Shown here in pieces: positions 6,069 through 58,483 of a stretch of 64,000 nucleotides of DNA (positions are counted from its first letter, which is position 1; every line of letters starts with the position of its first letter). Both the position numbers and the translations under genes were made by a program. Source of the stretch: an uncultured Anaerolineaceae bacterium (lineage in GTDB: Bacteria; Chloroflexota; Anaerolineae; Aggregatilineales; Aggregatilineaceae); NCBI GenBank assembly GCA_964611395.1, contig CAZSXY010000002.1, positions 1,682-65,681 on the forward strand. Reading direction: 5' to 3'. A model generated the notes under the pieces. That model saw nothing but the letters and a program-made list of their open reading frames with translations, had not been told where the DNA came from and ran no database searches.

Positions 6069-6194
6069 AAGCTCGTCCTGTAAAAATAAGCTAACCGTCG
6101 CGGGTCACCCTGTGAAGAAACCAGGGGCGCTGGCATCCTCACGCGTACTCTTGATCATAGGCCTATGCGTGCGCGGCATCACTTGCGGCTGCGC

Positions 6195-7340
6195 TCAAAA
6201 GCGTTTGCGCCCCGCCCACCTGGTGACTTTACGCAGGATATCCCGTTCCTCCGCTTCGCTTTCGGTGGCGACCCACAAGAAAATCCCCTCTGGCTCCACC
6301 GCGTCCATAAAATCGTCCAGGTCCCGCTTGTCCAGGTCAACGATGATGGGCGCACGCGCTTGAACGCGTTTGATGAACGGCACCCATTGCATGATCGGGT
6401 AATCGTCGCCCACGCCTTGCACCCATTGAATGGCGTGTACTTCCGGCACATCCAGAATCATGTCAATATGCCGGGCCACCCCCCGGCCATCAACATGAAA
6501 GATATTGTGCGTCATCGTCTGGACTTCGCGCCGCAAAACCGGTAAACAAAACTCCTCGAACATGGTAGGGGAGATCAACGCGGAAAAATCGCAACTGGGG
6601 ATGTGCATCCGCCCAAAAGATGGGATACCCATCCAGCTCACGGACAACTGTTTCCCGGCCTTGAGCATCGCGTCAAAATGATCGTAGATGGTCTCAAAAT
6701 CCTGTATGGCCAGGGCAATCAATTGCTTGGCCTTGTCAGGATTCTCGATCATATCCAGGCAAAGCTGTTGCGGATCGCGCCAGGCCGCCGCACAGTCAAC
6801 ACCGGGGTGCAAATCCGTATAGCCCACCAGGGACTTGCCCTGGCAGCGTTCCAGTGCGCACCGTGTCAGCGCTTCGAGCTTCGTAAAATAGTCATTCTGC
6901 ATATCCAGCCGCAACCGGTCCATATCGCCCCACGATTTCACACATGGTTTGGACCAGGCCGTCACCTCGCCATATTCAAGCTCTGCGCCATAGAACGCGG
7001 CATAAACTTCTGGCCCAAGGTTGGGCCAGAATACGGGGAACGTCTCCCCCAGAAATGTCTTGCCTGCAATAGACTTCAGGTACGTATCAACCTGGAATTC
7101 CTCGTCGAACCAGCGATCCTTCAGGTTATCCGACGGGTAAGCCGTGTTAGCTTCCTCGACAAACGCATTATGCGCCACGAAACGCACCGGTGGGCGGTCA
7201 ATAATCGCCCGTTCATACCAGGCATAGACCCGCTTCATGGCCATCTCGAACTGGGGCATCCCCTCAAGTTCGACCGTCCACCAGTCGGTTGTAACCGGTT
7301 GCGTCATGATGTGTCCCACACTATTGGTTTGGGCCGGCAA
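6195..7340 (-). CDS. Hypothetical protein, distant URO-D-like barrel suspected
   Basis: Long ORF with coding-like composition in the same sugar locus. Only weak family resemblance by eye (C-terminal HVDGRG...IQWVQG block). An alternative ATG start at 7307 (MTQPV...) is likely. Confidence 0.35.
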   Translation of the reverse strand: MPAQTNSVGHIMTQPVTTDWWTVELEGMPQFEMAMKRVYAWYERAIIDRPPVRFVAHNAFVEEANTAYPSDNLKDRWFDEEFQVDTYLKSIAGKTFLGETFPVFWPNLGPEVYAAFYGAELEYGEVTAWSKPCVKSWGDMDRLRLDMQNDYFTKLEALTRCALERCQGKSLVGYTDLHPGVDCAAAWRDPQQLCLDMIENPDKAKQLIALAIQDFETIYDHFDAMLKAGKQLSVSWMGIPSFGRMHIPSCDFSALISPTMFEEFCLPVLRREVQTMTHNIFHVDGRGVARHIDMILDVPEVHAIQWVQGVGDDYPIMQWVPFIKRVQARAPIIVDLDKRDLDDFMDAVEPEGIFLWVATESEAEERDILRKVTRWAGRKRF

Positions 7341-41874: not shown

Positions 41875-42906
41875 TTAGAAACTCAAATCCCCAACATGAC
41901 TCGCGGCATAAAGCCACAGGGCATGGTACCGATTCGACCGCAGCCAATCGGCGGTTTCGCCGCTAAGCCGGTCGTCAAGACCTCCGGCCTCACGAACACG
42001 CGCCACCAGTTGGCCGGTGTAGCGCGCCCAAGTCAGCACAAACAACGGGGCAAGCGCCTCAGTGGGCAACTCCAGCGCCCGCGCGTAGTGGCTTATATAG
42101 GGCCGCGCCCAGGCCTCGGTCCCAAAGAACGCCTCATGAAACGCCTGCAGATACTCCGGCAATGACCGGGCGCGGTTGCGCGCGAAGGCAATGTACGTGA
42201 GGAAGAAAAACAAATCGCAAGCAACCAGCCCATCGAGCCGGGCCAACTCCCAATCCACTACACCCAGCCCCCCGTGAGGCATCACAATCAAATTGGGATG
42301 GCTCAGGTCGCCGTGCTCCAGCACTGGGGGCAAATTCGCCTCCTGGAGCCGGGCCGCAAGCTGGCGGGTTACCGCCAGGGCGCGCTCTTCGTCCGGCGTG
42401 AGCGCCGACGCGTTTTCGATGGCCGCCAGCGGTTCCAACACGAGACGGTCGAACCAGTCCGCGCCACCACGATCGGGCTGCGGCTGTTGCACCTCAACCA
42501 GCCACTCAACGCCCAACCGGCAACAACGGGCCATGTCACGGCGCGCCACAGCCTTGCTCATCGGAGTGCCGACAATAGCCGTCTCAAGCAGGATGGGGTA
42601 GCCGCAATAGGTATCGTAAGCGACTACTTCCGGCACTGACGCGAAACCGCCAGGACGCAGCGCCTGCACAGCCCGCAATATGCGCACTTCGCGCTCCAGA
42701 AATTCCCCGGCATCAGGCAGGCGCGGCACTTTGGCCACCAGCACCGGGCGCACCCGGCCCACCGGCAAAATCAGGAACACCGCATGGCGCGACGCCTGAA
42801 ACCGTGGCGTGAGCACAACGCTGGTCAACCGGCGCGGCACACCCAGACGTTCCAGGTCAAGGCTTACGCGGTGTTCTTCCAGGTATGAAAGCGCCATGTT
42901 CATCAT
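41875..42906 (-). CDS. Aminoglycoside-phosphotransferase/protein-kinase-like fold protein
   Basis: Brenner motif EHGDLSHPNLIV and VVDWELA. Start set at the ATG overlapping the upstream stop (TGATG at 42904-42908). The longer track ORF overlaps the upstream gene. Confidence 0.7.
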   Translation of the reverse strand: MMNMALSYLEEHRVSLDLERLGVPRRLTSVVLTPRFQASRHAVFLILPVGRVRPVLVAKVPRLPDAGEFLEREVRILRAVQALRPGGFASVPEVVAYDTYCGYPILLETAIVGTPMSKAVARRDMARCCRLGVEWLVEVQQPQPDRGGADWFDRLVLEPLAAIENASALTPDEERALAVTRQLAARLQEANLPPVLEHGDLSHPNLIVMPHGGLGVVDWELARLDGLVACDLFFFLTYIAFARNRARSLPEYLQAFHEAFFGTEAWARPYISHYARALELPTEALAPLFVLTWARYTGQLVARVREAGGLDDRLSGETADWLRSNRYHALWLYAASHVGDLSF

Positions 42907-43529
42907 CACACCCGCTGGCCGGTCAGGCTGAAATGCCGGATGCCCCACCCCAACAACCGGCTGTAAAACAGGCCAAGCGCGGTCAGATGGGCGAGCATTC
43001 CTTTCACGCCGGATGCGCCCTTCAGCCACGCGCTCGACACCGCGCCTGCGTCGTCTAAAGGAACCATGCGTGTGCAGGACGCGAAATTCGGCCAATGCCA
43101 GTGTGCCTGCACTCCGATCAAACCAGCACGCAGCGCCGCCCGGCGATAGGCACCGGGATGCACCCACCGGCCTGACACTTCCGCATACACGGCCCCACCG
43201 GGTCGCAGCAACACCACAACAGACGCCAACAAAGCAGGCGAAACCCCTTTACACACCACGCGATCATAGGGAGTATCGGTGGCTCCCAACGACGACGCAT
43301 CCAACACTATCAATTCGTCGCTAAAGGTGCGCAACGCTTCAAGCAACGCGCCCTGTTCCGGGCCGATATAGGCCACCCGGCCCAGCGTGGGGTCCGGCAG
43401 CAAGAAACGCCAATCCAGGCGACGCACCGCGATCAATTGCGCGTGACCGGCGTCTTCCCCTGCTGCAGTGTTGGGCTGCTGATCTAGCGCAACCAGGCTA
43501 TCAAGCGTCATCACTACCCTCACCACCAT
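42906..43529 (-). CDS. Rossmann/methyltransferase-like domain protein (homolog of the N-half of 56669-58483)
   Basis: WRFLLPD...VAYIG...IVLD...LLRPGGAVY pattern resembles a class I methyltransferase fold. Collinear with the N-terminal 200 aa of the 56669-58483 product. Confidence 0.4.
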   Translation of the reverse strand: MVVRVVMTLDSLVALDQQPNTAAGEDAGHAQLIAVRRLDWRFLLPDPTLGRVAYIGPEQGALLEALRTFSDELIVLDASSLGATDTPYDRVVCKGVSPALLASVVVLLRPGGAVYAEVSGRWVHPGAYRRAALRAGLIGVQAHWHWPNFASCTRMVPLDDAGAVSSAWLKGASGVKGMLAHLTALGLFYSRLLGWGIRHFSLTGQRV

Positions 43530-44708: not shown

Positions 44709-44980
44709 CCAATTGTAACTTCACTATTCTATGACTTTAATTATAACTTTGACCATTGACCATTAGCCAAGACCCCTATATGATTATAATAGCAAATATG
44801 TTTAAGTAGATCGAAGTCTTCAAAATTTCAACGGCGGTTGGTCATTCACGGCTGGATAGTGACGCGTCACCACGTTGGGCCACATCAACTCAGCACATAG
44901 TAGCTAACACGTCTTCTCCGCAGGCTGGCTGCAACTGGATGAGCCAAGAAAGTCGAAGGATAGCGCGGCCTTATCTGTAT

Positions 44981-44996
44981 TGAAACGAACGTTTCA
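44981..44996. promoter_or_regulatory. Inverted repeat TGAAACG-AA-CGTTTCA in the divergent promoter region
   Basis: Perfect 7+7 inverted repeat, central in the AT-rich 535-nt gap between the two glycan operons. Confidence 0.3.
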
Positions 44997-45243
44997 GTAT
45001 CATCAAAGAATTGCTTTAGTGGTGTCGTCAAACACCTGCATCAAAACTTCCCCAATGCCTTTCTCATTCTAGGTTAGCAGAACAATAAATTTTGTCTGGT
45101 TCTTATAAAAAACTACTAAATATCGGCGCTCAGCAATGTTTTTGGGTCGCCCAACCCATATAATTCTTGAAGTAGTGGTGGTAGTACTCATTTCCTAGAT
45201 CGGAACAGAGAAGACGGAATTTAGTGTTGTAAGGGTGGGAACC

Positions 45244-46977
45244 ATGTATCAACTTCGTATTCTCATAGTGGCCGCTGTTCTTTGGGTGATCTTCTTATTC
45301 GGTTTAGCCCGCCCAGACCTCATCGGTGTAGAGTTATCCCCAGCCGTCTATGTCCTTACCCTGGGCATTGTGCTGGCTGTCTTTTTCCTGCCCGACCTGG
45401 GTGTCTGGCATTGGGCGGTAATTACCGCGCCGACCGTGGCGATCTATCTTGGCGCGGGCCTTTTCGGAGGCCTCAACCACGCGCTTTCTGACTGGCCGGT
45501 TGTGTCAATCGAGCTGATCGTGCTGTTGATCACGGTGTTCCTGGCACGCACCACATCGCTCATTGTCGCAAAGCTGGAACACGTGCTGGAGAGCCTGGTG
45601 GTTGACGCCAACAGCACACGCATTCTGTCTCCCGCCGATGGTGAGGAAACCATCAATAGCGAGTTGTTTCGCGCCAGGCGATTCGACCGGCCTGTGGCGT
45701 TTGCGCTCCTGAAGCTGGGGGATGTCCCCGAACTGCGCAATGCGCCCACCGATCGGTTTGACATCCATGCCGTACTCCAGCGCAGCTATTTGCGTTCGCG
45801 CGTCGGGCAACTTGTCGAATCCGTGTTGTATCGCACCGACCCGCTCGCCTGGTTCGATGACAACCTGGTGCTCTGCCTGCCCGAAACAACCAAACCAGAA
45901 GCAGAGAAACTCGCCCAGCAGATCTACGACCTGGTCCGGATGATGCTCAATATTCGGATACCCATCGGTATTTCCACGTTCCCTGAAAATGGGTTGATCT
46001 ACAGCGATCTAGTCGAGGCCGCGTCAAAAAACCTGTGCCAGTTTATGGAGGCAAAAGTGCAGAAGAAGGTCGCCGAAAAGCAATCGGCCAGCCAGGCGTC
46101 CCCTGCAAACATGGATGAAGGCGCGACATCGGGAAAACTGGCGCTCGACTTTTCCAACGTGAGTATGGGCAATAATGGTGCATTGAGCCTCAAACATGAG
46201 GCTGGATCGCGCTTCCTGATGGCGCTGGGCTTAGGGGCATTGTCTACCTGGGACGAACTGGTCCAACCGTTTCTGTCGCACGCCGATACGTCCATTAAAA
46301 AAGAGACGCCCTACTATGATCCGGGTTTTTGGGTCAACCGCCTGCCCTACCAGAGTGCCCAGACGCGCCGTGTCTATCTGAAGATCAAGCGCCTGATGGA
46401 CTTGACGGCAGTCATTCTCACCATGCCGCTCACGCTCCTGTTGGGGCTGACGCTGGCGTTTCTCATCTGGTTGGAAGACCGCGCGGCACCGATCTATGTC
46501 CAGCAACGGATCGGGCTGGGGGGGCGGCAGTTCAAGATGTACAAGTTCCGCTCCATGATTCCCAACGCGGATCGACGGCTGACGGAACTGGGTGTTCGTG
46601 TCAATGAACGCGGCGAGACGATCAACGAAAACGGTGACAAGCTAGAAAACGACCCGCGCATCACGCGCATGGGCAGAATCCTGCGTAAGACCAGCCTGGA
46701 TGAGCTGCCCCAACTCTGGAACGTATTGCTCGGACAGATGAGTCTGGTAGGGCCGCGCCCCACGTCGTTCGGTGTGGATAGCTACTCCTTGCTCCAGACG
46801 CAGCGCTTGAGCGTCAAGCCGGGCATCACCGGGCTGTGGCAAATCTATGATCGTGGTGACACCGACTTTGACAAGCGCCTGATCTGGGACATCAAGTATA
46901 TCGAGAAAATGAGCCTGTCATTGGACATTGAAATCCTGCTGCGCACGGTGCTCAAGTTCACCAATGGTGCACGCTAA
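45244..46977 (+). CDS. Polyprenyl-phosphate phosphoglycosyl transferase (Bac_transf) fused to N-terminal TM region and degenerate GGDEF-like domain
   Basis: C-terminus has KFRSM, SLDELPQLWNVL, LVGPRP and PGITGLWQ. The middle region has the GGDEF-domain pattern with GGDEF replaced by WFDDNL and the DxDxFK site lost. Confidence 0.8.
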   Translation: MYQLRILIVAAVLWVIFLFGLARPDLIGVELSPAVYVLTLGIVLAVFFLPDLGVWHWAVITAPTVAIYLGAGLFGGLNHALSDWPVVSIELIVLLITVFLARTTSLIVAKLEHVLESLVVDANSTRILSPADGEETINSELFRARRFDRPVAFALLKLGDVPELRNAPTDRFDIHAVLQRSYLRSRVGQLVESVLYRTDPLAWFDDNLVLCLPETTKPEAEKLAQQIYDLVRMMLNIRIPIGISTFPENGLIYSDLVEAASKNLCQFMEAKVQKKVAEKQSASQASPANMDEGATSGKLALDFSNVSMGNNGALSLKHEAGSRFLMALGLGALSTWDELVQPFLSHADTSIKKETPYYDPGFWVNRLPYQSAQTRRVYLKIKRLMDLTAVILTMPLTLLLGLTLAFLIWLEDRAAPIYVQQRIGLGGRQFKMYKFRSMIPNADRRLTELGVRVNERGETINENGDKLENDPRITRMGRILRKTSLDELPQLWNVLLGQMSLVGPRPTSFGVDSYSLLQTQRLSVKPGITGLWQIYDRGDTDFDKRLIWDIKYIEKMSLSLDIEILLRTVLKFTNGAR

Positions 46978-47120
46978 ACACACCAGGCCTTAAACATGAA
47001 AGACTCGTCTATCAGAGTCTTGCCTCAACAGCACAAAGGGCATGTCCGCCGGTTGCAGACATGCCCGAAGATATTGTGAAAGGCCCACCTGCGGCCTTGC
47101 ACAGGCAAAGGGACGTAAAG

Positions 47121-48746
47121 ATGATTCGAAGCTATACAGGTATTCTTCGACGGTGGTTCTGGTTATTGGCGCTCACCACCGTGATCGCTGGTTTGGTCAG
47201 CTACGTGGTTAGCAGCCGTGCACCGGTGCGATACTCCGCTAAAGCCAAATTACTCGTGGGGCCGGCTGCCGAAAGCCTGAATCTAGAACTGGATGATCTG
47301 CGAACGGCGGCGCAGTTACTCGAAGTATACGCTGTGCTCCCTACCATGCGCCCCTTCCTGGAAACGGTGATCGAGGATCTCAACCTGGACGTCAACCCTC
47401 TTGCACTCAAAAATGACCTCACGATCACAACGGACACAACAACACAAATCTTGAGCATCGAAGTGACCAACAACGATCGGGATCAGGCGACGCTGATCGC
47501 CAACGCGATCGCTGACAAGCTTGTTACCCGCAGCCCTTCCGGTGCGACGACGCCCAATGCATGGGACCGCCTCCGGGATCAAATCGAGCGCGTCGAAGCC
47601 ATCATTGCCAAAAGTGAGGCCCGCACTGAGACCCTTGAAGCATCCCTGGAAACCGCAGACACCGAAGCGCAACGCGCCCAAATCTCCACGCAGATTTCAG
47701 ACGAACGCTCGTACATCTCAGAAGCCGAGCGGCTGCTGATCTCGCTCTATACTGCGTTGCAGGACACGCCAAACAACCAGATCGACGTCATTGAACCGGC
47801 TGAGCGCGGCACACCAATCGATCGGGCTGTGCCCCTCAAAACAATTTTAGGCGTGCTGGGCGGGCTGGTGTTCGGCGGGGCGATTGTATTGGCTTCCGAA
47901 TATTTCAACGAGACCATCCGGCTGCCCGGCGATCTTGAAAGAATCGAGGCTGCCCCGGCGCTTGGCTCCCTCACCATCCGCCGATCGCGGCGTGCTGCAA
48001 TCCGGTCCCGGCCCCTTGTCTTGACCGATATCGAATCGGACGCCGCCGAGCGCTATCGCCGGCTTGCTATGCGCCTGCGCTTTGCCGATAACAACCAGGC
48101 CCTGCAGATGGTTGTGATTGGCGACATTCAAGGCGATGGCAGCGGCGGTGAAGTGGCCGCGAACCTCTCCGTCGTCATGGCGCAGCTTGGGGATAATATC
48201 GTGCTGGTTGATGGTGATCTGCGCAAGGGGATTGTGACGCGCATTTTCGACCTCGCAGACTCCCCTGGCCTGACCGATTTATTCGCTGACGAAATCGCTC
48301 TCGACGACATCCTCGTGCCAACCGACCAGTCAAATGGGTTGGCCATCCTGCCAAGCGGGCAGGGAACGCGTGACTTCTTTGAAATGGTGACCTCCGAACG
48401 TTTTACCGAAATCATCGAGCGGCTCACGGGCATTGCGGATCGTGTCATCATTGCGTCTCCTCCTCTGCACGCGTCTGCCGCCGGTCTGGTACTAGCTGCG
48501 CGTGCCGATGGGACTCTGATCGTCGTCAGAAGCGGGCGTAACAACCGCCAGCAACTTGGCGAGGCTCTCGCCAGCTTGCAGGAAGTGGGTGCGCACGTGA
48601 TCGGCACCATTTTAGCCGTCCAGATGCGGGAATTCGCCAGCGGGTTCCGTAGGCGGCGCGCGCGTCCAGCGGCAAAGAACACACGCAGCCAATCGTCGTC
48701 AACTCAGTCCCAGCGCCAGCCCCTGGAAAAATCAATGGAATCATGA
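47121..48746 (+). CDS. Wzz-like chain-length determinant fused to a BY-kinase-like domain with degenerate Walker motifs
   Basis: N-terminal TM, coiled-coil and second TM (PCP topology). C-domain is collinear with CpsD/Wzc ATPases, but Walker A is GDIQGDGSGGEV, Walker B is VIIASPP, and there is no C-terminal Tyr cluster. AAGGGA RBS before ATG 47121. Confidence 0.75.
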   Translation: MIRSYTGILRRWFWLLALTTVIAGLVSYVVSSRAPVRYSAKAKLLVGPAAESLNLELDDLRTAAQLLEVYAVLPTMRPFLETVIEDLNLDVNPLALKNDLTITTDTTTQILSIEVTNNDRDQATLIANAIADKLVTRSPSGATTPNAWDRLRDQIERVEAIIAKSEARTETLEASLETADTEAQRAQISTQISDERSYISEAERLLISLYTALQDTPNNQIDVIEPAERGTPIDRAVPLKTILGVLGGLVFGGAIVLASEYFNETIRLPGDLERIEAAPALGSLTIRRSRRAAIRSRPLVLTDIESDAAERYRRLAMRLRFADNNQALQMVVIGDIQGDGSGGEVAANLSVVMAQLGDNIVLVDGDLRKGIVTRIFDLADSPGLTDLFADEIALDDILVPTDQSNGLAILPSGQGTRDFFEMVTSERFTEIIERLTGIADRVIIASPPLHASAAGLVLAARADGTLIVVRSGRNNRQQLGEALASLQEVGAHVIGTILAVQMREFASGFRRRRARPAAKNTRSQSSSTQSQRQPLEKSMES

Positions 48747-48753
48747 GCGCCAC

Positions 48754-50025
48754 ATGCACACGATGATAGAACACACCTTCGACGAACTAGAGGCGGCTGG
48801 CATCGTTTATTGCCTTTTGCGAGACGCAACCCGGCTTGACCATCTTGCGCAAGGCGGCGAAATCGACATGCTGGTTCAGGCAAACCAGCTCAAAGCCCTG
48901 AAACAACTCCTATGGCAACTCGGTTATGTGCCGCTGCCGTCGATGGGTTATGAACCGCACCATTTCTTTGTCCGGTACGAACGGGAATCCGACGGCTGGT
49001 ACAAGCTCGACGTGGTCACCAAGATCGTATACGGCAAGAGCGTGAAGTTCCTCCACACGGACCTGGCTGCAGCCTGTTTGCGCAACCGCCAGCGTGTGGG
49101 GCCAACCTATGCGCCTTCCCCCGAAGACGAGTTTGTGACCCTGTTGCTCCATTGCCTGCTGGACAAAGGGCGTTTCGCCCCCCACCGGCGCACAAGGTTG
49201 GAGGCGCTGCGCCATGCGGTCACGCAGCCCGAGTACGTCTCAACATTGCTTGCCACGTATTGGCTGCCCGATGCGACATTCGATCAGATCACCGGGCACA
49301 TCGACGCGGGGGACTGGGACGGCTTGCTGGCTGCCCGCGAACGCGTCACCGCGCACCTCAAGCGCCGGAAGCCTGTCGCCCAGGTCGTCGCCATTCTGCG
49401 ACGGAAGTCCGGGCGTATCCTGCACCGGATCGGGGGGCTGGCACACCCGGTCATGCCGTCGGTGGCCCTGCTGGGGCCGGACGGCGCAGGGAAATCGACC
49501 CTGGCCGAGAGCCTGAGCGAGCGCTTCTGCATGCCGGTTCGGTCGGTGTACATGGGCCTGTACCCCAATTCCGCGCGGAAAAAGCCCGCCAGACGAGTGC
49601 CAGGCCTGGGTTTCATGAAATTATTGACCGTCCAGTGGCGACGATACCTCCAGGCACGCTCGGCGCAGGCACGCGGCCACCTGGTAGTCTTCGACCGCTA
49701 CGCTTATGACGCGCTATTGCCGCAACCGCAGCGCCGCAATCCGCTCAAGCGCCTGCGCCGGTGGCTGCTGGCCCATGCTTGCCCGCCGCCTCACCTGGTG
49801 CTGGTGCTGGACGCGCCCGCCGAAGTGCTGTATGCGCGCAAAGGCGAACATACGGTGGGTAAGTTGGAATCGCAACGGCAGGCCTACCGGTCGTTACAAA
49901 CCCGGCTGTCCAACGTCACGATCCTCGACGCGACCCGCGAAGCCGAGCACGTCCGCCGCCAGGCCAATACGGCTATCTGGGAGACCGTTTTCAGACGAAG
50001 AAACAGCAAGGGCAAGGTCACATGA
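48754..50025 (+). CDS. Nucleotidyltransferase-like (NTP_transf_5-like) domain fused to P-loop kinase-like domain
   Basis: N-half has GGEIDMLV...LGYVPL...YKLDVVTKI. C-half has Walker A VALLGPDGAGKST, LVVFDRY and LDAPAEVLYARKGE, paralogous to 39958-40671. Confidence 0.55.
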   Translation: MHTMIEHTFDELEAAGIVYCLLRDATRLDHLAQGGEIDMLVQANQLKALKQLLWQLGYVPLPSMGYEPHHFFVRYERESDGWYKLDVVTKIVYGKSVKFLHTDLAAACLRNRQRVGPTYAPSPEDEFVTLLLHCLLDKGRFAPHRRTRLEALRHAVTQPEYVSTLLATYWLPDATFDQITGHIDAGDWDGLLAARERVTAHLKRRKPVAQVVAILRRKSGRILHRIGGLAHPVMPSVALLGPDGAGKSTLAESLSERFCMPVRSVYMGLYPNSARKKPARRVPGLGFMKLLTVQWRRYLQARSAQARGHLVVFDRYAYDALLPQPQRRNPLKRLRRWLLAHACPPPHLVLVLDAPAEVLYARKGEHTVGKLESQRQAYRSLQTRLSNVTILDATREAEHVRRQANTAIWETVFRRRNSKGKVT

Positions 50026-51299
50026 CGGCGACATTCACCCCTACCGCAGAGCAAGAAACTACAGCCCAGAAACCAATGCCTAAAGTGGCATATATAATGT
50101 CGCGCTTCCCTAAAATTACCGAGACGTTTATCCTGTACGAAATCCTCGCCGTGCAGAAACAGGGCGTGCCCGTCGAACTCTACCCGCTCCAGCGTGAACG
50201 CACATCCGTCATGCATCCCGAAGCCAGGCCGCTGGTAGAAGCTGCTCATTTCCTGCCGTTGATCGCCTGGCCGATCATCCGGTCGCATCTCCACTACTTG
50301 CGCACCAGGCCCCGCGCCTACGTTAAGGCATTGTGGGATCACCTGCGAGCGACCTGGGGCAGCAAGCGCTATTTCTTTGGCGCACTGGCATTCTTCCCCA
50401 AGACGGTACGCTTTGCGCACATGATGGAAGCGGCGGGTATTGAGCATATTCACGCGCACTTTGCAAGCCACCCGGCGGCAGCAGCATTTGTGATTCATCG
50501 CCTGACCGGGATTCCCTACAGCTTCACGGCACACGGTTCTGATTTGCATCGCGATCGCCACATGCTATGCCAAAAAACGGCTGAAGCCGCTTTTGTGGTG
50601 ACGATCTCAAACTTCAATCGCGACATCTTTGTTCAGGCGTGCGGCGACTGGGTGCGTGACAAAGTCCACGTGCTCCATAGCGGCGTCGATACCGAGGCCT
50701 TTCAACCGTTAGACGCCGACCGCCCCCCAGGCCAACCGTTCACCATCCTTTGCATCGGCACATTGCACGAGGTCAAAGGGCATACCCACCTCATCGAAGC
50801 CTGTCGCCTGCTCCGCGAACGTAACATCGATTTTTCGTGTCACTTTGTGGGCGATGGACCCGATCACGCGGCACTTACCATCCAGGTAGCCAGTGCTGGT
50901 CTGTCCGATCACATCCATTTTGAAGGGCGGTTGACACGCCAGGATGTGATTGCCATGCTGCGGCGGGCTGATGTCGTCGTTGCGCCCAGCGTGCCGTCGC
51001 GTGACAACCGGCGCGAAGGCATCCCGGTGGTGCTGATGGAAGCCATGAGCAGTGGCGTGCCGGTCATCGCCAGCGACCTATCGGGCATCCCGGAACTGGT
51101 CGAGCACGAGGTAAGCGGCCTGCTGGTCTCGCCCGGTGACCCGGCAGCGATTGCCAGCGCGATCGAACGCCTGGCCCGCGATCCGGCGCTTCGGCGGCGA
51201 CTCGGCCAGGGCGGGCGCGACAAAGTGCAGCGTGAGTTCGACCTTGACACCAATGCTTCACTGCTGGTGAAGCACATACAAAGCAGGGAGCAGGCATGA
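50022..51299 (+). CDS. Glycosyltransferase family 4 (WcaL-like)
   Basis: KVAYIMSRFPKITETFILYEI N-terminus and EGIPVVLMEAMSSGVPVIAS E-x7-E region. ATGA overlap with the upstream gene. Confidence 0.85.
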   Translation: MTATFTPTAEQETTAQKPMPKVAYIMSRFPKITETFILYEILAVQKQGVPVELYPLQRERTSVMHPEARPLVEAAHFLPLIAWPIIRSHLHYLRTRPRAYVKALWDHLRATWGSKRYFFGALAFFPKTVRFAHMMEAAGIEHIHAHFASHPAAAAFVIHRLTGIPYSFTAHGSDLHRDRHMLCQKTAEAAFVVTISNFNRDIFVQACGDWVRDKVHVLHSGVDTEAFQPLDADRPPGQPFTILCIGTLHEVKGHTHLIEACRLLRERNIDFSCHFVGDGPDHAALTIQVASAGLSDHIHFEGRLTRQDVIAMLRRADVVVAPSVPSRDNRREGIPVVLMEAMSSGVPVIASDLSGIPELVEHEVSGLLVSPGDPAAIASAIERLARDPALRRRLGQGGRDKVQREFDLDTNASLLVKHIQSREQA

Positions 51300-52456
51300 G
51301 CACAGTGACTTTCTGGGTAGCAGTGGCGTTGTTGGCTTATACTTATGTGTTGTTCCCCATCATGCTGGTGGTGCGCGGCCTGCTGAGGCAACGCCCGGTC
51401 AACGCCGCAGACATTGAGCCACGCGTCAGCATGATCATCGCCGCCTATAACGAAGCGGACAGCATCGGGGCCAAGATTGACAACCTGCTCTCGCTGGATT
51501 ACCCCGAAGACCGGCTTGAAGTCGTGATCGCCTCCGATGGATCGGATGATGGCACGGTCGCTGTTGTCGCCAGTTATACGGATGAACGCATCAAGCTGCT
51601 GGCCCTGCCACGCCAGGGAAAAGCGGGCGCGTTAAACGACGCCGTCAATGCCGCCACCGGAGACATTCTGGTCTTTTCGGATGCCAACAGCATGTACGCT
51701 CCCGATGCCATTCGCCGGTTGGTCCGGCACTTTGCCGACCCCCGTGTCGGCGGCGTTGCCGGGAACCAGCGTTACCTGTCGGAACAAGACTCTGACTCCG
51801 GCGCAACCGGAGCCGGAGAGCGCAGCTATTGGGGACTTGATCGTCTGCTCAAGCGGATCCAGAGCCGGGCCGGGAACACGATCTCGGCCACCGGCGCAAT
51901 CTACGCGATCCGGCGCTCGCTGTTCCAGCCGGTTCCTGAAGGGGTGACCGACGACTTTGTAACATCCACCCGTGTCATTGCCCAGGGGTACCGGCTTGTG
52001 TTCGACCCGGAAGCCGTCGCCTTCGAGCCGGTCGCCCAATCCAGCGAAGTCGAGTTCGGACGCAAGGTGCGCGTGATGACGCGCGGGTTGCGGGGCGTGA
52101 TCGTCATGCGCGAATTGCTCAACCCCTTTCGCTTCGGCTTCTATGCGGTGCAGCTATTCTCACACAAGGTACTGCGGCGGCTGATGTTCGTCCCGCTCAT
52201 GGCTGTGTTCGCGGCCAATCTTTTCTTGTGGGGCGATGGGTTGTTTTACAAGCTGGCCATGCTCGCGCAACTCCTTTTCTACGGGTGCGCCTTGCTGGGG
52301 CTGTTCCTGCGCGGGCACAAAATCGGACGGGTGAAGGTCATCGCGATTCCATTCTATTTCTGCGTGGTCTATTGCGCGGCCTTGATCGCAACGTGGAATG
52401 TGATTCGCGGACGACGCATCACAAGCTGGACGCCGCAAAGGCAGGTAGCACACTGA
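51296..52456 (+). CDS. Membrane-associated glycosyltransferase family 2
   Basis: VSMIIAAYNE, ASDGSDDGT and VFSDANS motifs, flanked by N- and C-terminal TM helices. Confidence 0.85.
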   Translation: MSTVTFWVAVALLAYTYVLFPIMLVVRGLLRQRPVNAADIEPRVSMIIAAYNEADSIGAKIDNLLSLDYPEDRLEVVIASDGSDDGTVAVVASYTDERIKLLALPRQGKAGALNDAVNAATGDILVFSDANSMYAPDAIRRLVRHFADPRVGGVAGNQRYLSEQDSDSGATGAGERSYWGLDRLLKRIQSRAGNTISATGAIYAIRRSLFQPVPEGVTDDFVTSTRVIAQGYRLVFDPEAVAFEPVAQSSEVEFGRKVRVMTRGLRGVIVMRELLNPFRFGFYAVQLFSHKVLRRLMFVPLMAVFAANLFLWGDGLFYKLAMLAQLLFYGCALLGLFLRGHKIGRVKVIAIPFYFCVVYCAALIATWNVIRGRRITSWTPQRQVAH

Positions 52457-52514
52457 CCGGCCACACGTGCTAAATTCTGGACAGAGGCTTAGTGTTGAGC
52501 ACACGGATACCCGA

Positions 52515-53990
52515 ATGATCACGGCAAAGCGCAACCCCAAACGCCCCTTATCACAAACTCAGGTGCTGGCCGGACTGGTCGCCGCCGCGAGTGCGGTGGT
52601 GGGGCTGGCCCTGGCAAATAGCAGCCCTCTCCTGGCATTGGGTGTGCTGGTGTTGGCAGGTATGGCGTTCGTACTTCTGTCCAGGCCGGAATGGGTGACG
52701 CTGATCGTGATCTTCGCGCTTTATTCCAACCTGACGGTTATCGCCATCCGGCAAGGCGTGCCCCCTCAAATCGCCGGGGGTATCTTGCTGGCACTCGGTT
52801 ATCCGCTGTTCCACTACCTGATTGGTCATCGCGAGCGAATCATCATCACCGCGCCGTTCGTGTTGATGGTGATCTACCTTGCCACGTTGCTTTTGTCCGC
52901 CGCTTTTTCTGACCAACCGACCCTGACATTTGAGCGCATCCAGAACTTCGTGCTCGAAGGGCTGATCCTGTACTTTCTGGTGATCAACGCGGTAAGAAAC
53001 CGGGCGATATTACGGCTAACGATCTGGGTATTGTTGCTTGCCGGGAGCCTGATGGGCGCATTGACCATTTTCCAGGGCGTGACACAGAGTTATGACAACG
53101 ATTTCGGCGGATTAGCCCAGGCCACCGATGCCGAGGTCCCAGTGAGCGAAGAAGACTTTGTGGGTAACACAATCGTTGTCAAGCGGCTGGCAGGCCCTAT
53201 CGGTGAAAAGAATCGCTACGCCCAGGTATTGGTCGTCCTGATCCCATTGGCGATCACGCGCATGTTAGCCGAGCGTCGCAAGTCATTGCGCTTTGCCGCT
53301 TTCGTGGCAATGATGCTAATTCTCGGCGGCATTCAATTCACCTTCTCGCGCGGCGCGGGGGTGGCCATCGGCGTGATCCTTCTGGCTTTATTGCCCATGC
53401 GCCTGGCGAAAGCACGCCATTTTATGATCGTGGGCACGTTGATCGTCATTGCCGTGTTCGCGCTTGCCCCCGGCTATTTCTATCGTCTCTCGACGCTGGG
53501 CGACGTCGCCGATCTGGTCAGCGGAGACCCAACCGAAGCGGGCTCATCGGTGCAGGGGCGCGCAACCGAAAACCTGGCCACGTTGCTCATGTTCCTTGAC
53601 CATCCTGTTGTCGGCGTCGGGCCGGGCCAGGCACCACGCCTCATGCGTGATTACGGGCGCGGCATAGGCTTCCGGCTGCTTGATCCCAATCGCCGGGCGC
53701 ACAACATGTACCTGGAAGAACTGGCCGACACGGGCATTCTTGGCTTCAGCGCGTTCATCGCCATTGTGTTGGTCACGACGTTCACGCTGGACACCATCCG
53801 CCGCCGGGCGCGCGCAGGCGACCCGGACACGTTTTACCTGGCTTCCGGCTTCCTGTTGAGCCTCATCGCCTATCTCACAACAGCGATCTTTCTGCACCTG
53901 GCATATGCGCGTTATTACTGGTTTTTGCTCGCCATTGCCGGTGCTGCAGCTCACATCTTAAAGCAGGGCACATCCAAGGCACGCGTATAA
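52515..53990 (+). CDS. O-antigen ligase/polymerase-like (Wzy_C family) membrane protein
   Basis: ~11 TM helices with a large loop containing FTFSRGAGVAIG and the HNMYLEELADTG block. The start is ambiguous (GTG 52467 or ATG 52515). Confidence 0.7.
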   Translation: MITAKRNPKRPLSQTQVLAGLVAAASAVVGLALANSSPLLALGVLVLAGMAFVLLSRPEWVTLIVIFALYSNLTVIAIRQGVPPQIAGGILLALGYPLFHYLIGHRERIIITAPFVLMVIYLATLLLSAAFSDQPTLTFERIQNFVLEGLILYFLVINAVRNRAILRLTIWVLLLAGSLMGALTIFQGVTQSYDNDFGGLAQATDAEVPVSEEDFVGNTIVVKRLAGPIGEKNRYAQVLVVLIPLAITRMLAERRKSLRFAAFVAMMLILGGIQFTFSRGAGVAIGVILLALLPMRLAKARHFMIVGTLIVIAVFALAPGYFYRLSTLGDVADLVSGDPTEAGSSVQGRATENLATLLMFLDHPVVGVGPGQAPRLMRDYGRGIGFRLLDPNRRAHNMYLEELADTGILGFSAFIAIVLVTTFTLDTIRRRARAGDPDTFYLASGFLLSLIAYLTTAIFLHLAYARYYWFLLAIAGAAAHILKQGTSKARV

Positions 53991-54064
53991 CCACCATTTA
54001 ACGAGGGCTTGGGGTTATGGTGAATTCCCTTACAGCCCCCGCGCAATTGAAACAGGTGTAATGA

Positions 54065-56656
54065 GTGAAACACGACCAACTGATCAGTAACCTGATCGGA
54101 AAACTCAACAGCCGGGATAACGACGAAACGCACGCGGCAGTCGACGCGCTGCGCGAACTGGGGTGTTTGAGTGATGGCACGCTGCGCGGGGGCAACTTCC
54201 TGGGCGCGAACCTGCAAGGGTTGCAACTGGGCGGCGCAGACCTGCATAGCGCACGCCTCGAATGGTCACAGCTAGACAATGCCGACCTGACGGAAGCCAA
54301 CCTGCAGGAAGCCAACCTGTCAGTGACATCGCTCAAACACGCCAGGCTGGTGGGCGTCGATTTGCGCCACGCCCAACTGTTAAAGGCGCGCCTGCAAGGA
54401 GCAGACCTGCGCTCAGCGCTGCTCAACTCCGCAGAACTGGGAGAAGCTCGCTTGCACGGCGCGAACCTCAGGAGCGCGAACCTCAGCAAAGCGCGCTTGG
54501 GGCAGGCAGAACTGGTGGGGGCTGACCTGTCAAACGCCACCCTCAAACAAACGTGGCTGCGCGGAGCCGACCTGGAAGACACAAGCATGGAAAAGGCCGA
54601 CATGCGCCAGGCTTACCTGGGAGAAGCCAATCTGCGGCAGGCCATCTTGCGATCCGCCAACCTGGCCGGGGCTATCCTGACCGGCGCGACCCTGCTGAAA
54701 GCCGACCTCCGCCATGCCAACCTGACCGGCGCGCGCCTGACATCCGCTGACCTGCGCGGCGCAGACCTGAGCGATGCGTGCTTGCGGGAGTGCAATCTGA
54801 GCGACGCGAACCTGCAGAATGCCGATCTCACCGGGGTTGACCTGCGCGGCGCGAATCTGACGGGCACAGACCTGTTCGCAGCCTCGCTGGATCAGGCATA
54901 CTTCGACGAATCCACCATCCTGCCAGATGGACGCGCATGGTCACCCGCCGTCGGTGAACCCTTCGCCATGCTCACGCCATTGCCAGACATACCCACAGAA
55001 GAAACGCCAAACGTGTCCATTACCCCTTTACTGAAGCCATCGCACGTTGAACCAGCCGGCGGCGGCAACGGCCATCCGGTTGCCCCGGTTGCCGAAATAC
55101 CGCGTGCGATAGTAAGGAAAAAGAAACGACCCAAAGACATAAGTGCCGCCGGGTCAACGCGCCGCCAGATTCGCGGGTCAAGCCTGTTGCTGGTCGGACG
55201 TATGATCTCGATGGTCGTCAACTTCGTCGTTCAGGTCTTGACGGTTCGCTACCTGACCAAGGCCAACTACGGCGCGTTTGCCTATGCGCTCTCCATCGTG
55301 TCACTGGGCGAAACTATTGTCACCCTGGGGCTGGACAGGGCCGTCACACGCTTCGTGCCGATTTACCAGGAACGCGACGAGTACCCCAAGATGTTCGGCA
55401 CACTCGTGATGGTCTTCGGCACGATTCTTTCGCTGGGAATCGCGCTCGTTCTGGCCGTCGTGCTGTTGCAAGATTTCATTGCCACACACCTGATCAGCGA
55501 CCAAAAAGCGGTCGAGTTGCTGGTGATCCTGGTCGCGTTATCGCCGGTGCAGGCCATCGACAATGTGTTGAACGGGTCATTCGCGGTGTTCTCGAAACCC
55601 AGCGCGATTTTCTTCCGCAAGTACGTCTTAGGCCCGGCCCTAAAAATTACCGTTGTCGCGTTGCTGATTCTGGGCAACAGTGGGGTGGAATTCCTCGCGG
55701 CGGGCTACCTGGGCGCAGGATTGGTGGGGATTTCAATCTTCTCGGTCATTCTATGGCGCATGTTACGCGCCCAAGACTTCTGGGCGCAGTTCAGCCTGAA
55801 GACGATTCAGTTTCCGGCCCGCGAAGTGCTGGCGTTCACCGTGCCGCTGCTGGCATCTGACATGGTATTCGTGGTGATGAACACGGTCGATGCCATTCTG
55901 TTGGAACGCTACAAAGGAACTGTCGATGTGGCCGCGTTCCGCGCCGTCCAGCCTACAGCCCGCTTGAATCAAATGGTTCTGTCGAGCTTTGCCCTGCTCT
56001 TCACCCCCGCAGCCGCACGAATGTTTGCCCGCAACGACAAAGAAGGCATCAACAGCCTGTATTGGCAAAATGCCGTGTGGGTCGCGATTGTGTCATTCCC
56101 GGTGTTTGCGCTCACTTTTTCGCTGGCCGAACCCCTGACCGTGCTCTTGTACGGTTCGCGCTATGAGCAATCGGCGCTGATCATGGCCATGTTGTCGCTG
56201 GGGTACTACTTCAATGCGGCAACCGGCCAAAACGGGCTGACGCTCAAGGTGCTGGGCAAGCTGCGCTACATCGTCGGCGTCGATATCCTGGCGGCGGTGA
56301 TCAACCTGCTGGTCAACCTCACGCTGATCCCACGCTATGGCGCGATGGGAGCCGCCATCGGCACGATGACCACGTTGATCCTGTTCAACATACTCAAGCA
56401 AATCGGGTTAATGTTGGGCACGGGCATTCGCGTGTTTGATCTCAATTACCTCAGGGTGTATCTAAGTATCGTGGTAGGCGCGGTGGGGCTGCTGGCGATC
56501 CAGGCGTTCTTCGTGCTCCCACTCGCCGTCGGTTTTGCCATTACGGCGCTGGTATCGCTGCTCGTATTGCGCCTTAACCGGCGGATGCTCAACCTGGAAG
56601 TGATGTTCCCCGAACTACTGCGCATTCCCATCGTGCGCTGGTTCTTTGGCGAGTAG
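54065..56656 (+). CDS. Pentapeptide-repeat domain fused to a MOP/Wzx-type polysaccharide flippase
   Basis: Residues ~35-285 are continuous A(D/N)LxX pentapeptide repeats (ANLQGLQLGGADLHSARLEWSQLDNADLTEANL...). After a basic linker there is a ~500-aa, ~14-TM Polysacc_synt-like region. Confidence 0.8.
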   Translation: MKHDQLISNLIGKLNSRDNDETHAAVDALRELGCLSDGTLRGGNFLGANLQGLQLGGADLHSARLEWSQLDNADLTEANLQEANLSVTSLKHARLVGVDLRHAQLLKARLQGADLRSALLNSAELGEARLHGANLRSANLSKARLGQAELVGADLSNATLKQTWLRGADLEDTSMEKADMRQAYLGEANLRQAILRSANLAGAILTGATLLKADLRHANLTGARLTSADLRGADLSDACLRECNLSDANLQNADLTGVDLRGANLTGTDLFAASLDQAYFDESTILPDGRAWSPAVGEPFAMLTPLPDIPTEETPNVSITPLLKPSHVEPAGGGNGHPVAPVAEIPRAIVRKKKRPKDISAAGSTRRQIRGSSLLLVGRMISMVVNFVVQVLTVRYLTKANYGAFAYALSIVSLGETIVTLGLDRAVTRFVPIYQERDEYPKMFGTLVMVFGTILSLGIALVLAVVLLQDFIATHLISDQKAVELLVILVALSPVQAIDNVLNGSFAVFSKPSAIFFRKYVLGPALKITVVALLILGNSGVEFLAAGYLGAGLVGISIFSVILWRMLRAQDFWAQFSLKTIQFPAREVLAFTVPLLASDMVFVVMNTVDAILLERYKGTVDVAAFRAVQPTARLNQMVLSSFALLFTPAAARMFARNDKEGINSLYWQNAVWVAIVSFPVFALTFSLAEPLTVLLYGSRYEQSALIMAMLSLGYYFNAATGQNGLTLKVLGKLRYIVGVDILAAVINLLVNLTLIPRYGAMGAAIGTMTTLILFNILKQIGLMLGTGIRVFDLNYLRVYLSIVVGAVGLLAIQAFFVLPLAVGFAITALVSLLVLRLNRRMLNLEVMFPELLRIPIVRWFFGE

Positions 56657-56668
56657 GAGTCACGCCTG

Positions 56669-58483
56669 TTGCTTGAGCTTACACTAGCCACCGATTTTAT
56701 TCCCGGCTCAAATCTGCGCGGCAATGTGGCCGGAGCCAACTGGACCTATCTACTACCCGACCTGAACCTGGAAGCAATGCTCTGTGTAGGCGCGCCTTCG
56801 ACGGCAGCCTTGCACACGCTGGCTTCGCTGGCCCAGTCCGTTATCGTGTGCACACCCTCGCATGCCAGCCTCGATACTAGAGCGCTCGCTGGCTGGCCGA
56901 ACGTCACGCTACTGGCCATTGCCAGCAACGGAACGCTGCCCCTTGATGACCTGAGCGTCGATCTGGTATTTGTGACAGACCGGCATCTTGTGCGCGATCA
57001 CCGGCAACTGGAGAACGAGATACGCCGCGTGCTGCGCCCGCGCGGGCTGGCGTACTACGAAACCCGTAGCCCGCTGCGCCGGATGCCGTCAGCCGACAAC
57101 CTTCTGGGTTCCGGAAGCGCGCAACACTTCTGGCTGACGCCGCTCGGTGGCGAGATGCACACCGCGGTTCCGGCCAGCGATGCCGTCACACGCCGCTTTT
57201 TCCTGCGGCAGGCGTTGTTCAGCCCGTCGATCACCGTGCACACGGCGAAACGCGCTATACGCCGCATGCGCAGACGACGCCAGACCGTCGCGTCGCCGGA
57301 CACCCCACCCTCGCCACCAGAAGACCGCGCCCCGCAACGCCTGGGTGACAGGATGCGGTTGCTTGGCGATCGCGTGTTCGAAGCGCTGGCCAGCGCCGAG
57401 GGTACACTGCACCGGCATACCACGCTGATCGGGCGGTATGGCGTCCTCGAAGGTCGCGCGGGCGCTCCCCTTACCGGCGACCCACCCGCCTACCTGTGCG
57501 ACATGGCGGAGCAGGCGGGTCTTGACCTGCACCAATACGGGTGGGGATTGTGGGCCGGAGGCCAATACAGCTCGCGGAAGCTGCTATTCTTCCTCGTCGA
57601 TCGGGAATCGGCGTCGCTGCGCTACCTGGTCAAAATGGTTCGCGACCCGTCGTTCAATACCCGGTTGGAGAACGAATGCGCGGCCCTCAAAGACCTGGAA
57701 GCACGCAACTTCGCGCACGATCACGCGCTGCCAAGGGTTGTCTTTCATGGCCATCACCACCACCTGGCAATCGTCGGCGAGACGGCGGTGCAGGGAGTTC
57801 CCTTCAAGAGCAAAACGCGCCTCACGGCGTCATGTCCCTACGCCCATGCCGTGATCGAGTGGCTGACAGATTTGGGCGCAACCACCGCCTCGCCCGACGA
57901 CGTCGCGCCGCAGGACGTCGCCCGCGCTCTGAACACCCTTTTCGAGCGCTTCCAGGCCATTTACCGGTTACCACCTGCCGAGCGCGACTTCCTCAGCGAA
58001 CAGATCGCCGCTTTGGGCAATAGCCGGACGCCGTTTCCGCTGGTATTTCAGCACGGCGATCCCGGCCCCTGGAATATGCTGGTCACGCCTGACGACACGG
58101 TTGCCTTGTTGGATTGGGAATCTGCCGAGGCGAAGGGCATCCCGTTGTGGGACCTGTTTTACTTCTTGCGATCATATGCCGTGAACGTTGCGCGTTCCAA
58201 CGGGACGGCTGATCGGGTGGAGGGGTTTGCCAAACACTTTCTAACCCGCTCGTCGCTTAACCACATGATAGTGGATGCCACGCGCCAGTACTGCACGCGG
58301 ATCGGGCTGGCTGGCGAATTCATTGGCCCGTTGTTTTACACCTGCTGGATGCATCGTGCGCTCAAGCAATCAACTCTGCTACAATCTCATACATTGGCAG
58401 ACGGGTACTACTTCCGCCTGCTTCGTTACACCATCCAGCAACACGACGCACCAGCACTCAGACAATTATTCACGCAGACCTGA
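56669..58483 (+). CDS. Fusion of methyltransferase-like domain and APH/protein-kinase-like domain
   Basis: The N-half is collinear with 42906-43529. The C-half has QHGDPGPWNMLV and LLDWESA, collinear with 41875-42906. TTG start. Confidence 0.6.
   Translation: MLELTLATDFIPGSNLRGNVAGANWTYLLPDLNLEAMLCVGAPSTAALHTLASLAQSVIVCTPSHASLDTRALAGWPNVTLLAIASNGTLPLDDLSVDLVFVTDRHLVRDHRQLENEIRRVLRPRGLAYYETRSPLRRMPSADNLLGSGSAQHFWLTPLGGEMHTAVPASDAVTRRFFLRQALFSPSITVHTAKRAIRRMRRRRQTVASPDTPPSPPEDRAPQRLGDRMRLLGDRVFEALASAEGTLHRHTTLIGRYGVLEGRAGAPLTGDPPAYLCDMAEQAGLDLHQYGWGLWAGGQYSSRKLLFFLVDRESASLRYLVKMVRDPSFNTRLENECAALKDLEARNFAHDHALPRVVFHGHHHHLAIVGETAVQGVPFKSKTRLTASCPYAHAVIEWLTDLGATTASPDDVAPQDVARALNTLFERFQAIYRLPPAERDFLSEQIAALGNSRTPFPLVFQHGDPGPWNMLVTPDDTVALLDWESAEAKGIPLWDLFYFLRSYAVNVARSNGTADRVEGFAKHFLTRSSLNHMIVDATRQYCTRIGLAGEFIGPLFYTCWMHRALKQSTLLQSHTLADGYYFRLLRYTIQQHDAPALRQLFTQT

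Follow-up and report, generated by a model that had tools for sequence, protein, structure and literature searches.

A priming phosphoglycosyl transferase (PGT) encoded in a 64,000-nt window of DNA from an uncultured Anaerolineaceae bacterium of the Aggregatilineales (contig CAZSXY010000002.1, assembly GCA_964611395.1) carries a GGDEF-like unit that is a real, conserved, and undescribed accessory module of monotopic PGTs. The gene (45244..46977 of the window, + strand) encodes 577 aa, in which open reading frame (ORF), Pfam, and AlphaFold analyses delimit four transmembrane (4TM) helices, a degenerate GGDEF-fold domain, and a monotopic PGT core. Judged from its sequence, this PGT arose when the two genes of a conserved pair were fused, one for a 4TM+GGDEF-like partner and one for a small PglC-like PGT. 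The arginine of the inhibitory site (I-site, RxxD), as well as diguanylate cyclases themselves, have been lost in the fused Anaerolineae lineage. Sensing of cyclic di-GMP (c-di-GMP) by the window protein thus appears unlikely from its residues, and it is plausible for split relatives that bear RxxD.

GGDEF fold of the middle region

A preliminary description of this DNA held that the ~170-aa region between the membrane helices and the catalytic domain follows the GGDEF pattern, and the motifs it cited were all located (FRARRFDRPVAFALLKL at residues 142–158, YRTDPLAWFDDNLVLCLPETT at 196–216, IPIGISTF, and DLVEAASKNL). As a single sequence, the region stays below the thresholds of the relevant models: PF00990 (GGDEF) scored 15.4 bits with the whole protein and 18.2 bits with the domain alone (gathering cut-off 23.8), GGDEF_2 scored 17.3 bits (gathering cut-off 24.5), and TIGR00254 scored 11.4 bits (cut-off 37.4). 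None of the curated Pfam or NCBIfam models captured the 4TM+GGDEF-like module above threshold. A family profile built from residues 112–272 of 31 members returned nine matches in the PDB at E values of 6e-6 to 4e-3, all of them diguanylate cyclases aligned over nearly the whole domain, with the first unrelated protein at E=0.16; PF00990 was matched individually by 28 of the 31 members. The AlphaFold model of the isolated domain (predicted local distance difference test, pLDDT, 85.9; predicted template modelling score, pTM, 0.80) recovered GGDEF domains as its top 50 of 50 Foldseek matches in the PDB (E down to 3.2e-9, TM-score about 0.70).

Together with conservation, these data place a degenerate GGDEF-fold domain at residues 130–265 (45631..46038, + strand). 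The resemblance is well above chance and is detectable by profile or structure only. The hidden Markov model (HMM) search proposed in the preliminary description therefore gave a split outcome, in which PF02397 was significant, PF00990 was sub-threshold for the single sequence, and the family profile reached cyclases at E=6e-6. That description had also named an absence of any GGDEF match or fold around residues 140–300 as grounds for abandoning the idea; a GGDEF fold is found at residues ~130–265. We rejected the related possibility that the region is the usual variable linker of WbaP-like PGTs, because the GGDEF fold lies there and the true linker spans residues 266–355.

Degenerate catalytic and inhibitory sites

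The register of functional sites was set by HMM alignments to c-di-GMP-bound GcbC (5euh) and PadC (6et7), with the GG(D/E)EF signature counted back from the conserved LPET and the I-site sought five to six positions ahead of it. At the signature position, the LPET register and the family consensus place F204-D-D-N-L208 (45853..45867, + strand); the consensus of the fused family here is (H/Y/N)-G-(D/E)-(N/D)-L, with position 3 acidic across the family (Asp in 42 and Glu in 20 of 63). In alignments to 6et7 and 5euh, the column of the first (beta1) metal-binding Asp is occupied by Lys157 (45712..45714, + strand), and column counts indicate that this position is unconserved in the family (D16, K15, R14, N6, and others). 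Neither the GH..GD base-recognition block nor the C-terminal K/R phosphate-binding positions are kept in the aligned window domain. With FDDNL at the signature, Lys157 in place of the metal Asp, and none of the positions that bind guanine and phosphate retained, the domain cannot, on this residue evidence, be a cyclase; an active cyclase was accordingly rejected as a candidate, these positions being lost or unconserved. The earlier view that WFDDNL replaces the signature, that the metal site is gone, and that the domain is probably no cyclase is borne out by these positions.

The I-site is likewise altered. Alignment to the R-P-A-D of GcbC puts Y196-R-T-D199 (45829..45840, + strand) at the RxxD position, and the counts across the fused family show Tyr in 58 of 63 members and Phe in four at the place of the Arg, with the Asp kept. 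The search for a remaining I-site-like RxxD that the preliminary description recommended thus came out negative, with Arg replaced by Tyr in the window protein and RxxD in 0/86 fused homologues, all of which read Y/F-x-x-D.

Architecture and conservation

The four N-terminal TM helices described earlier are present as hydrophobic helices in the full-length AlphaFold model (pLDDT 80.4, pTM 0.69), where DSSP assigns them to residues 2–22, 33–54, 57–73, and 84–120. The bundle comprises residues 1–110 (45244..45573, + strand) by these helices and by conservation, and includes P50, Y68, and E90, which are invariant in the fused family; E90 (45511-45513, in TM4) is also nearly invariant in stand-alone relatives. 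Because 84–120 forms a single helix, TM4 appears to be prolonged toward the cytoplasmic domain as a stalk (residues 111–129; 45574..45630, + strand), after which the GGDEF-like domain spans 130–262 in the full-length model.

The middle region is the best-conserved non-catalytic part of the family. Conservation picks out the alpha0 motif ELFRARRFDRP (45661..45693, + strand), of which E140, L141, F142, R143, A144, R145, R149, and P150 are invariant in the fused family and R145 is invariant across fused and stand-alone modules alike; ELFRARR..RP and CLPE are both invariant. Among 63 fused homologues, with overall identity down to 38%, the GGDEF-fold domain has 15 invariant columns and 34 that are at least 90% conserved. 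The linker that follows (residues 266–355; 46039..46308, + strand), identified by pLDDT and conservation as a variable, predicted-disordered fusion junction, has no column that is at least 90% conserved, and its pLDDT is below 50 for residues 280–326. This difference indicates strong purifying selection on the GGDEF-fold domain.

Beyond the linker, conservation defines a pre-catalytic segment, PYYDPGFWVNRLPYQSA... (46309..46386, + strand), which matches the N-terminus of stand-alone small PGTs, whose pattern W..R.DP...Y..KRIMDL is its counterpart; in the full-length model, a conserved segment (PYYDPGFWVNRLPY) lies between the disordered linker and a helix at 372–412. The catalytic core (46387..46959, + strand) was delimited by PF02397, Foldseek, and invariant columns, and contains a predicted re-entrant helix (with P395), KFRSM, an Asp486-Glu487 dyad (46699-46704), and GPRP. 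PF02397 (Bac_transf) matched residues 382–572 over profile positions 1–177 of 179 (E=1.1e-59, 201.4 bits) and TIGR03025 matched with 239 bits; the NCBIfam models EPS_sugtrans, WbaP, and WcaJ gave partial matches confined to the C-terminal part of the protein. KFRSM (434–438), DELPQL (486–491), and GPRP (503–506) stand in the catalytic domain where they had been reported, supporting its earlier description as canonical Bac_transf, and the D486-E487 dyad, K434–M438, and G503–P506 are invariant in the 63 homologues. The long helix 372–412 contains the nearly invariant P395 and the fold matches PglC, as far as the predicted geometry can be taken; in Foldseek comparisons, the core is 33–34% identical to the PglC structures 8g1n and 8e37, with target TM-scores of 0.70–0.76. 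The full-length model matched GGDEF domains through its middle and WbaP (8t53) through its catalytic part only. Pfam found no match to PF13727 (CoA_binding_3), the domain of unknown function (DUF) of large PGTs, at E<=10 in the window protein.

Origin from a gene pair and distribution

A family gathered from the N-terminal 370 residues formed about 70 clusters, which were Anaerolineae or Aggregatilineales where named. Searching 400 Chloroflexota genomes with the domain profile uncovered, besides the window protein, matches of 65–87 bits in ORFs of ~290–400 aa. The stand-alone ~290-aa proteins share both the 4TM bundle and the degenerate domain, with homology extending through the bundle, and E90, E140, R143, R145, D199, P213-E214, G242, F246-P247, and A260 are common to fused and stand-alone forms.

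Where the module is a separate gene, it typically sits beside a PGT gene. In all 11 of 11 strong loci of one phylogenetic group (group C, below), from several genera, a ~227-aa Bac_transf PGT directly follows the stand-alone module on the same strand, at a distance of −1 to about 100 bp; in 2/2 loci of group B the order is reversed, with PGT before module, within GT4-GT2-Wzy clusters that are syntenic with the window operon. The module therefore directly adjoins a small PGT gene in 13/13 strong split loci. One stand-alone gene of group A belongs to a polysaccharide cluster but has no PGT gene closer than 5 kb, two weaker module matches have no PGT nearby, and three further loci run off contig ends. 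The adjoining small PGTs match the window core at E values of 1e-54 to 1e-66, compared to 2e-46 and 8e-29 for the two paralogues in the window's own genome. We rejected insertion of a GGDEF domain into a WbaP-like linker, since elsewhere the module has a gene of its own that adjoins that of a small PGT.

A locus designated L068 combines both forms, with a free 318-aa 4TM+GGDEF-like module (4001-4957) directly upstream of a 523-aa fused module-PGT gene (5000-6571). Its two modules are paralogues with 27% identity over 274 residues, an arrangement that suggests hetero-pairing of modules.

Among 1.84 billion representative proteins, the profile had 554 matches at E<=1e-10, and the best 150 of these 554 mix ~290-aa and 510–630-aa forms. 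The preliminary description had called for a survey of how widespread the architecture is; our scan of GTDB species genomes, which used a tighter module alignment (A2) and so covered mainly the fused family, found 35 loci with the close family, 34 of them fused and the remaining one running off a contig end. Their labels are Anaerolineae-type metagenome-assembled genomes (Thermoflexus, Anaerolineales, Aggregatilineales, Phototrophicaceae, Ca. Flexifilum) with one exception, a 3178-bp contig labelled Oceanobacillus sp. (L032, DATGQJ010000501.1) whose fused gene is 57% identical to the window's domain. As all other carriers are Chloroflexota, this contig is probably mis-binned. With a group-C module and its PGT as the query, only near-identical 289-aa stand-alone proteins appeared among the best 120 matches listed.

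Public names for these proteins vary. Two family members (from JGI) include "GGDEF domain-containing" in their names; in one set of stand-alone members, those with a name are called "hypothetical protein", and group-C proteins of ~289 aa (e.g., P0244 and P0250) are named "diguanylate cyclase" or "GGDEF domain-containing protein". RxxD-bearing stand-alone modules lack the GG(D/E)EF signature (e.g., DYKGRF in the protein from L013), and therefore should not be called diguanylate cyclases; judged by these residues, that naming is likely over-annotation.

I-site state and c-di-GMP enzymes

Among 223 family members, RxxD was found in 0/86 of those with Bac_transf versus 71/137 of those without it, mostly as RRTD. 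A FastTree phylogeny of 157 modules resolved three groups. Group A (98% support) holds all fused proteins along with about 21 stand-alone ones and is almost wholly RxxD-less, group B is mixed, and group C (56 rows, 83% local support) has RxxD throughout. Since group A, its stand-alone rows included, is near-wholly RxxD-less, loss of the I-site Arg is a trait of the clade and does not depend on fusion as such. Within group A, fused forms are scattered among split ones, with at least 5 changes on the tree, and a number of the rows counted as "stand-alone" may reflect gene truncation or, like the free module of L068, an additional paralogue.

The genomic supply of c-di-GMP enzymes follows a similar division. 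In the window genome (95.7% complete), PF00990 matched just twice (29 and 24 bits), and neither EAL nor PilZ was found. Both matches fall in receiver-domain proteins (minus strand, G000:C122:5555-5836 and G000:C68:10020-10307, where G000 is the window genome) with SAHEF or GSDNF in place of GGDEF; no GG(D/E)EF motif in a cyclase context, and hence no canonical diguanylate cyclase, was found in this genome. The 12 of 12 split-form genomes, five of which belong to the window's own class, have 10–16 PF00990 matches, the best at E values of 1e-48 to 1e-54. The fused-form genomes (the window's and 20 others) have 0–3 matches, none of them strong in any of the 21, with best E values of 1e-6 to 1e-18 save in one genome (G419, 4e-26).

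The G419 match (L072:1018-1395; G419:C8:40517-40894) is a canonical GGEEF domain (IDIDHFKELND...RFGGEEF, with a RETD I-site) in a garbled ORF with an in-frame TGA, and is probably the pseudogene relic of a diguanylate cyclase in a fused-PGT genome.

In genomes with the fused gene, the strongest PF00990 matches come from Wzz-type co-polymerases that carry a degenerate GGDEF-like domain at the C-terminus. ORFs of this type were seen at L015:11563-12774 (+) and around L070:1279-1728, L071:1282-1731, L073:1171-1638 (-), L074:1243-1689, and L075:1237-1698. They have an N-terminal Wzz region and a second TM helix, with the GGDEF-like domain at the usual place of the bacterial tyrosine kinase (BY-kinase). 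RxxD is kept as RGND, RAGD, or REGD, GGDEF is changed to DNTTF, GRYTF, or GQHVF, and LLPET is kept in four and reads LFAET in L075. Such proteins are present in both cyclase-rich and cyclase-free Chloroflexota genomes. Because they keep RxxD even where cyclases are absent, we discarded the idea that this motif is enough to mark c-di-GMP binding. The GGDEF-like domains of the PGT partner and of the co-polymerase might pair with each other.

Possible roles of the module

Because this lineage lost both the I-site motif and the c-di-GMP enzymes, a scaffold or regulatory module is likelier than a c-di-GMP sensor. We favor, with a probability of about 0.55 and by analogy, the view that the module is a functional counterpart of the four-helix bundle plus DUF of large monotopic PGTs, which would anchor, pair, and tune the catalytic core by protein contacts and would not be c-di-GMP-responsive here. 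The gene product would then be the priming PGT of a Wzx/Wzy polysaccharide pathway, with a PglC-like core permanently joined to an accessory module in which a stalk helix leads from the four-helix membrane bundle to a GGDEF-fold domain without catalytic function. The module may anchor and pair two PGT chains, as dimers are the working form of both GGDEF domains and WbaP; it may also set catalytic activity allosterically via protein–protein contacts, and in the fused lineage it would give no response to c-di-GMP. Fusion would fix a 1:1 stoichiometry for a partnership that is non-covalent elsewhere. The free module beside the fused gene in L068 can be counted as a hint of module–module pairing. 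Precedents for such a role are the DUF of WbaP, through which that enzyme dimerises and senses UMP (PMC10942596), and EpsZ, whose activation by EpsW~P likewise works through dimerisation (PMC12802240).

Several observations weigh against this interpretation. No homology of the 4TM bundle to that of WbaP was detected by Foldseek, which aligned 252 columns at a root-mean-square deviation of 11 and only the catalytic part. The absence of cyclases and the loss of the I-site are phylogenetically clustered, effectively representing one or few evolutionary events. In addition, a small-molecule pocket could likewise account for the very strong conservation of the Arg-rich alpha0 (R143, R145, R146, R149), of one alpha2 face (Y182, R186, Q189, E192), and of Y196/D199.

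This last point bears on the most serious alternative, which we regard as unlikely: a sensor gated by a ligand other than c-di-GMP, such as uridine monophosphate (UMP), a UDP-sugar, GTP, (p)ppGpp, or c-di-AMP, that controls the PGT allosterically. The ligand would bind at the remodelled I-site face, with its Tyr or Phe for Arg, its retained Asp, and its Arg-rich alpha0, or in what was once the active-site cleft, and conserved polar and aromatic residues do cluster at alpha0, alpha2, and the I-site loop, with an aromatic residue at the former Arg position (Y58 and F4 of 63) and an acidic one at signature position 3 (D42, E20). UMP sensing by the DUF of WbaP provides a precedent, and the GGDEF protein PleD has been captured with ppGpp bound (PDB 9g85 and 9g86). 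However, none of the canonical nucleotide-binding residues of the GGDEF fold is kept, and a protein interface accounts for the same conservation.

The preliminary description proposed that the domain could be a nucleotide or second-messenger sensor; for this protein, second-messenger sensing is an idea that YRTD, the lack of RxxD in all 86 fused homologues, and a genome without canonical cyclase, EAL, or PilZ do not support. Its c-di-GMP version, a PelD-like receptor that would turn on the committed step when its degenerate domain binds c-di-GMP, could draw on the GGDEF fold, on the retained I-site D199, and on the full RxxD of about half of the non-fused relatives, in genomes with 10–16 cyclases. 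We nonetheless consider it improbable, as the I-site Arg is missing in the window protein and in 86/86 fused homologues, canonical GGDEF, EAL, and PilZ are absent from the window genome, and 21/21 fused-form genomes are without strong GGDEF matches. The region upstream of the gene also contains no c-di-GMP riboswitch or other Rfam family, and RxxD alone is an unsafe proxy, being kept by Wzz-GGDEF-like proteins in cyclase-free genomes.

Loss of all catalytic and I-site determinants might indicate a decaying relic or mere spacer between membrane anchor and catalytic core, but the 15 invariant and 34 at least 90%-conserved columns across 63 homologues, compared to none in the true linker, and the persistence of the module in many genera as an independent gene next to a PGT make this very doubtful. 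A residual enzyme (a non-canonical cyclase or NTPase, as reported for some degenerate GGDEF domains) would be in keeping with the acidic residue at signature position 3 but has next to nothing in its favor given that the two glycines of the signature, the metal-binding Asp of beta1, and the positions that bind base and phosphate are lost or unconserved.

A broader scheme, to which we give tentative and limited credence, would extend the accessory-module interpretation beyond the fused lineage. The module might be a regulatory subunit of PglC-type PGTs across Chloroflexota, which in cyclase-rich lineages with an intact RxxD would serve as a c-di-GMP receptor gating the first committed Wzx/Wzy step; the Arg-to-Tyr fusion of the window would then represent such a receptor once its lineage had lost c-di-GMP signalling, rewired to another ligand or locked as a constitutive tethered activator.

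Gene neighborhood

The ATG at 45244, preceded by a Shine-Dalgarno-like GGGTGGG, was taken as the start of the PGT gene because the N-termini of homologues align to it; an in-frame GTG lies at 45235. Upstream is a divergent intergenic region of 535 bp (44709..45243; Rfam scan and sequence), in which the Rfam scan returned no family match and no riboswitch.

Pfam identifies the fused gene as the first of a plus-strand Wzx/Wzy-type operon, in line with its earlier placement at the head of a plus-strand operon. The rest of the operon (47061..56656, + strand, by Pfam) encodes a Wzz + BY-kinase-like co-polymerase (47061-48746), an NTP_transf_5/kinase protein (48754-50025), GT4 (50022-51299) and GT2 (51296-52456) glycosyltransferases, Wzy (52467-53990), and a pentapeptide-Wzx fusion (54065-56656; Pentapeptide E=7e-56, Polysacc_synt E=9e-23), all on the plus strand. 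The C-terminal domain of the co-polymerase is homologous to the BY-kinases BceF, CapB, and Wzc (best E=1.4e-23), and its Walker A region reads GDIQGDGSGGEV, without GK(S/T), so this kinase may be inactive. Pfam also identifies a methyltransferase+APH-like fusion at 56669-58483 (+) and, in the other arm of the same glycan locus, an APH-like protein at 41875-43167 (-).

Significance

For the regulation of priming PGTs, the literature consulted yielded only three mechanisms: UMP sensing by the accessory DUF of WbaP, which acts allosterically and also mediates dimerisation, and phosphorylation of CapM (both PMC10942596), as well as activation of the PGT EpsZ by EpsW~P, which promotes its dimerisation (PMC12802240). 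The locus described here defines a third accessory architecture of monotopic PGTs, the other two being the PF13727 DUF found in large PGTs and the fused enzymes of the bifunctional ones. Our literature search, which did not cover the monotopic PGT superfamily survey, found no paper on a GGDEF-like accessory module of a monotopic PGT, and queries combining degenerate GGDEF with undecaprenyl, or c-di-GMP with priming glycosyltransferase, gave nothing relevant; a bioRxiv study, "Bioprospecting c-di-GMP activated exopolysaccharides", does not treat PGTs.

The gene fusion ties this architecture to a large family annotated as "hypothetical", "GGDEF domain-containing protein", or "diguanylate cyclase", and suggests a candidate function, as PGT partner, for hundreds of its genes. 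For the question of whether c-di-GMP acts on priming, nature supplies a matched contrast between RxxD-bearing split forms in cyclase-rich genomes and Tyr-bearing fused forms in cyclase-free genomes. If RxxD modules were c-di-GMP receptors, they would represent a so far undescribed point of control by this messenger.

Comparison with known systems

The window domain has the same fold as active cyclases (T. maritima 4urg, PadC 5llw, DosC 4zve, GcbC 5euh, and PleD 2wb4; TM-score about 0.70) and has in common with them the E..RA.R of alpha0, the LPET after beta3, a G in beta4, FP.DG, and the A of the AD.A helix. Unlike these enzymes, it is without GG(D/E)EF, without the metal-binding Asp of beta1, and without conserved residues for binding guanine or phosphate, and it scores below the Pfam and NCBIfam cut-offs.

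PelD, PopA, SgmT, and Listeria PssE are degenerate-GGDEF receptors that bind c-di-GMP through an intact RxxD. PelD is membrane-anchored, forms part of a synthase-dependent machinery, and is not known to have a priming PGT as its target. The window protein resembles PelD as a membrane-anchored, catalytically dead GGDEF fold on an exopolysaccharide machine, but differs from receptors of this type in having YRTD and in belonging to a genome without c-di-GMP enzymes.

With large monotopic PGTs such as Salmonella enterica WbaP (8t53) and M. xanthus EpsZ, the window protein shares an overall layout of four N-terminal TM helices (predicted here), a cytoplasmic non-catalytic domain, and a Bac_transf core with a re-entrant helix (likewise predicted) and an Asp-Glu dyad, as well as a position at the first gene or step of a Wzx/Wzy pathway. 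Its accessory domain, in contrast, is a GGDEF fold and not the PF13727 DUF, and the module can also be encoded separately, an arrangement not known from large PGTs. Campylobacter PglC (8g1n, 8e37) is the best structural and sequence match of the window core, and the split relatives encode a PglC-sized PGT of ~227 aa; whereas PglC is a stand-alone monomer without a partner module, cores of the window type are fused to, or encoded beside, a 4TM+GGDEF-like protein.

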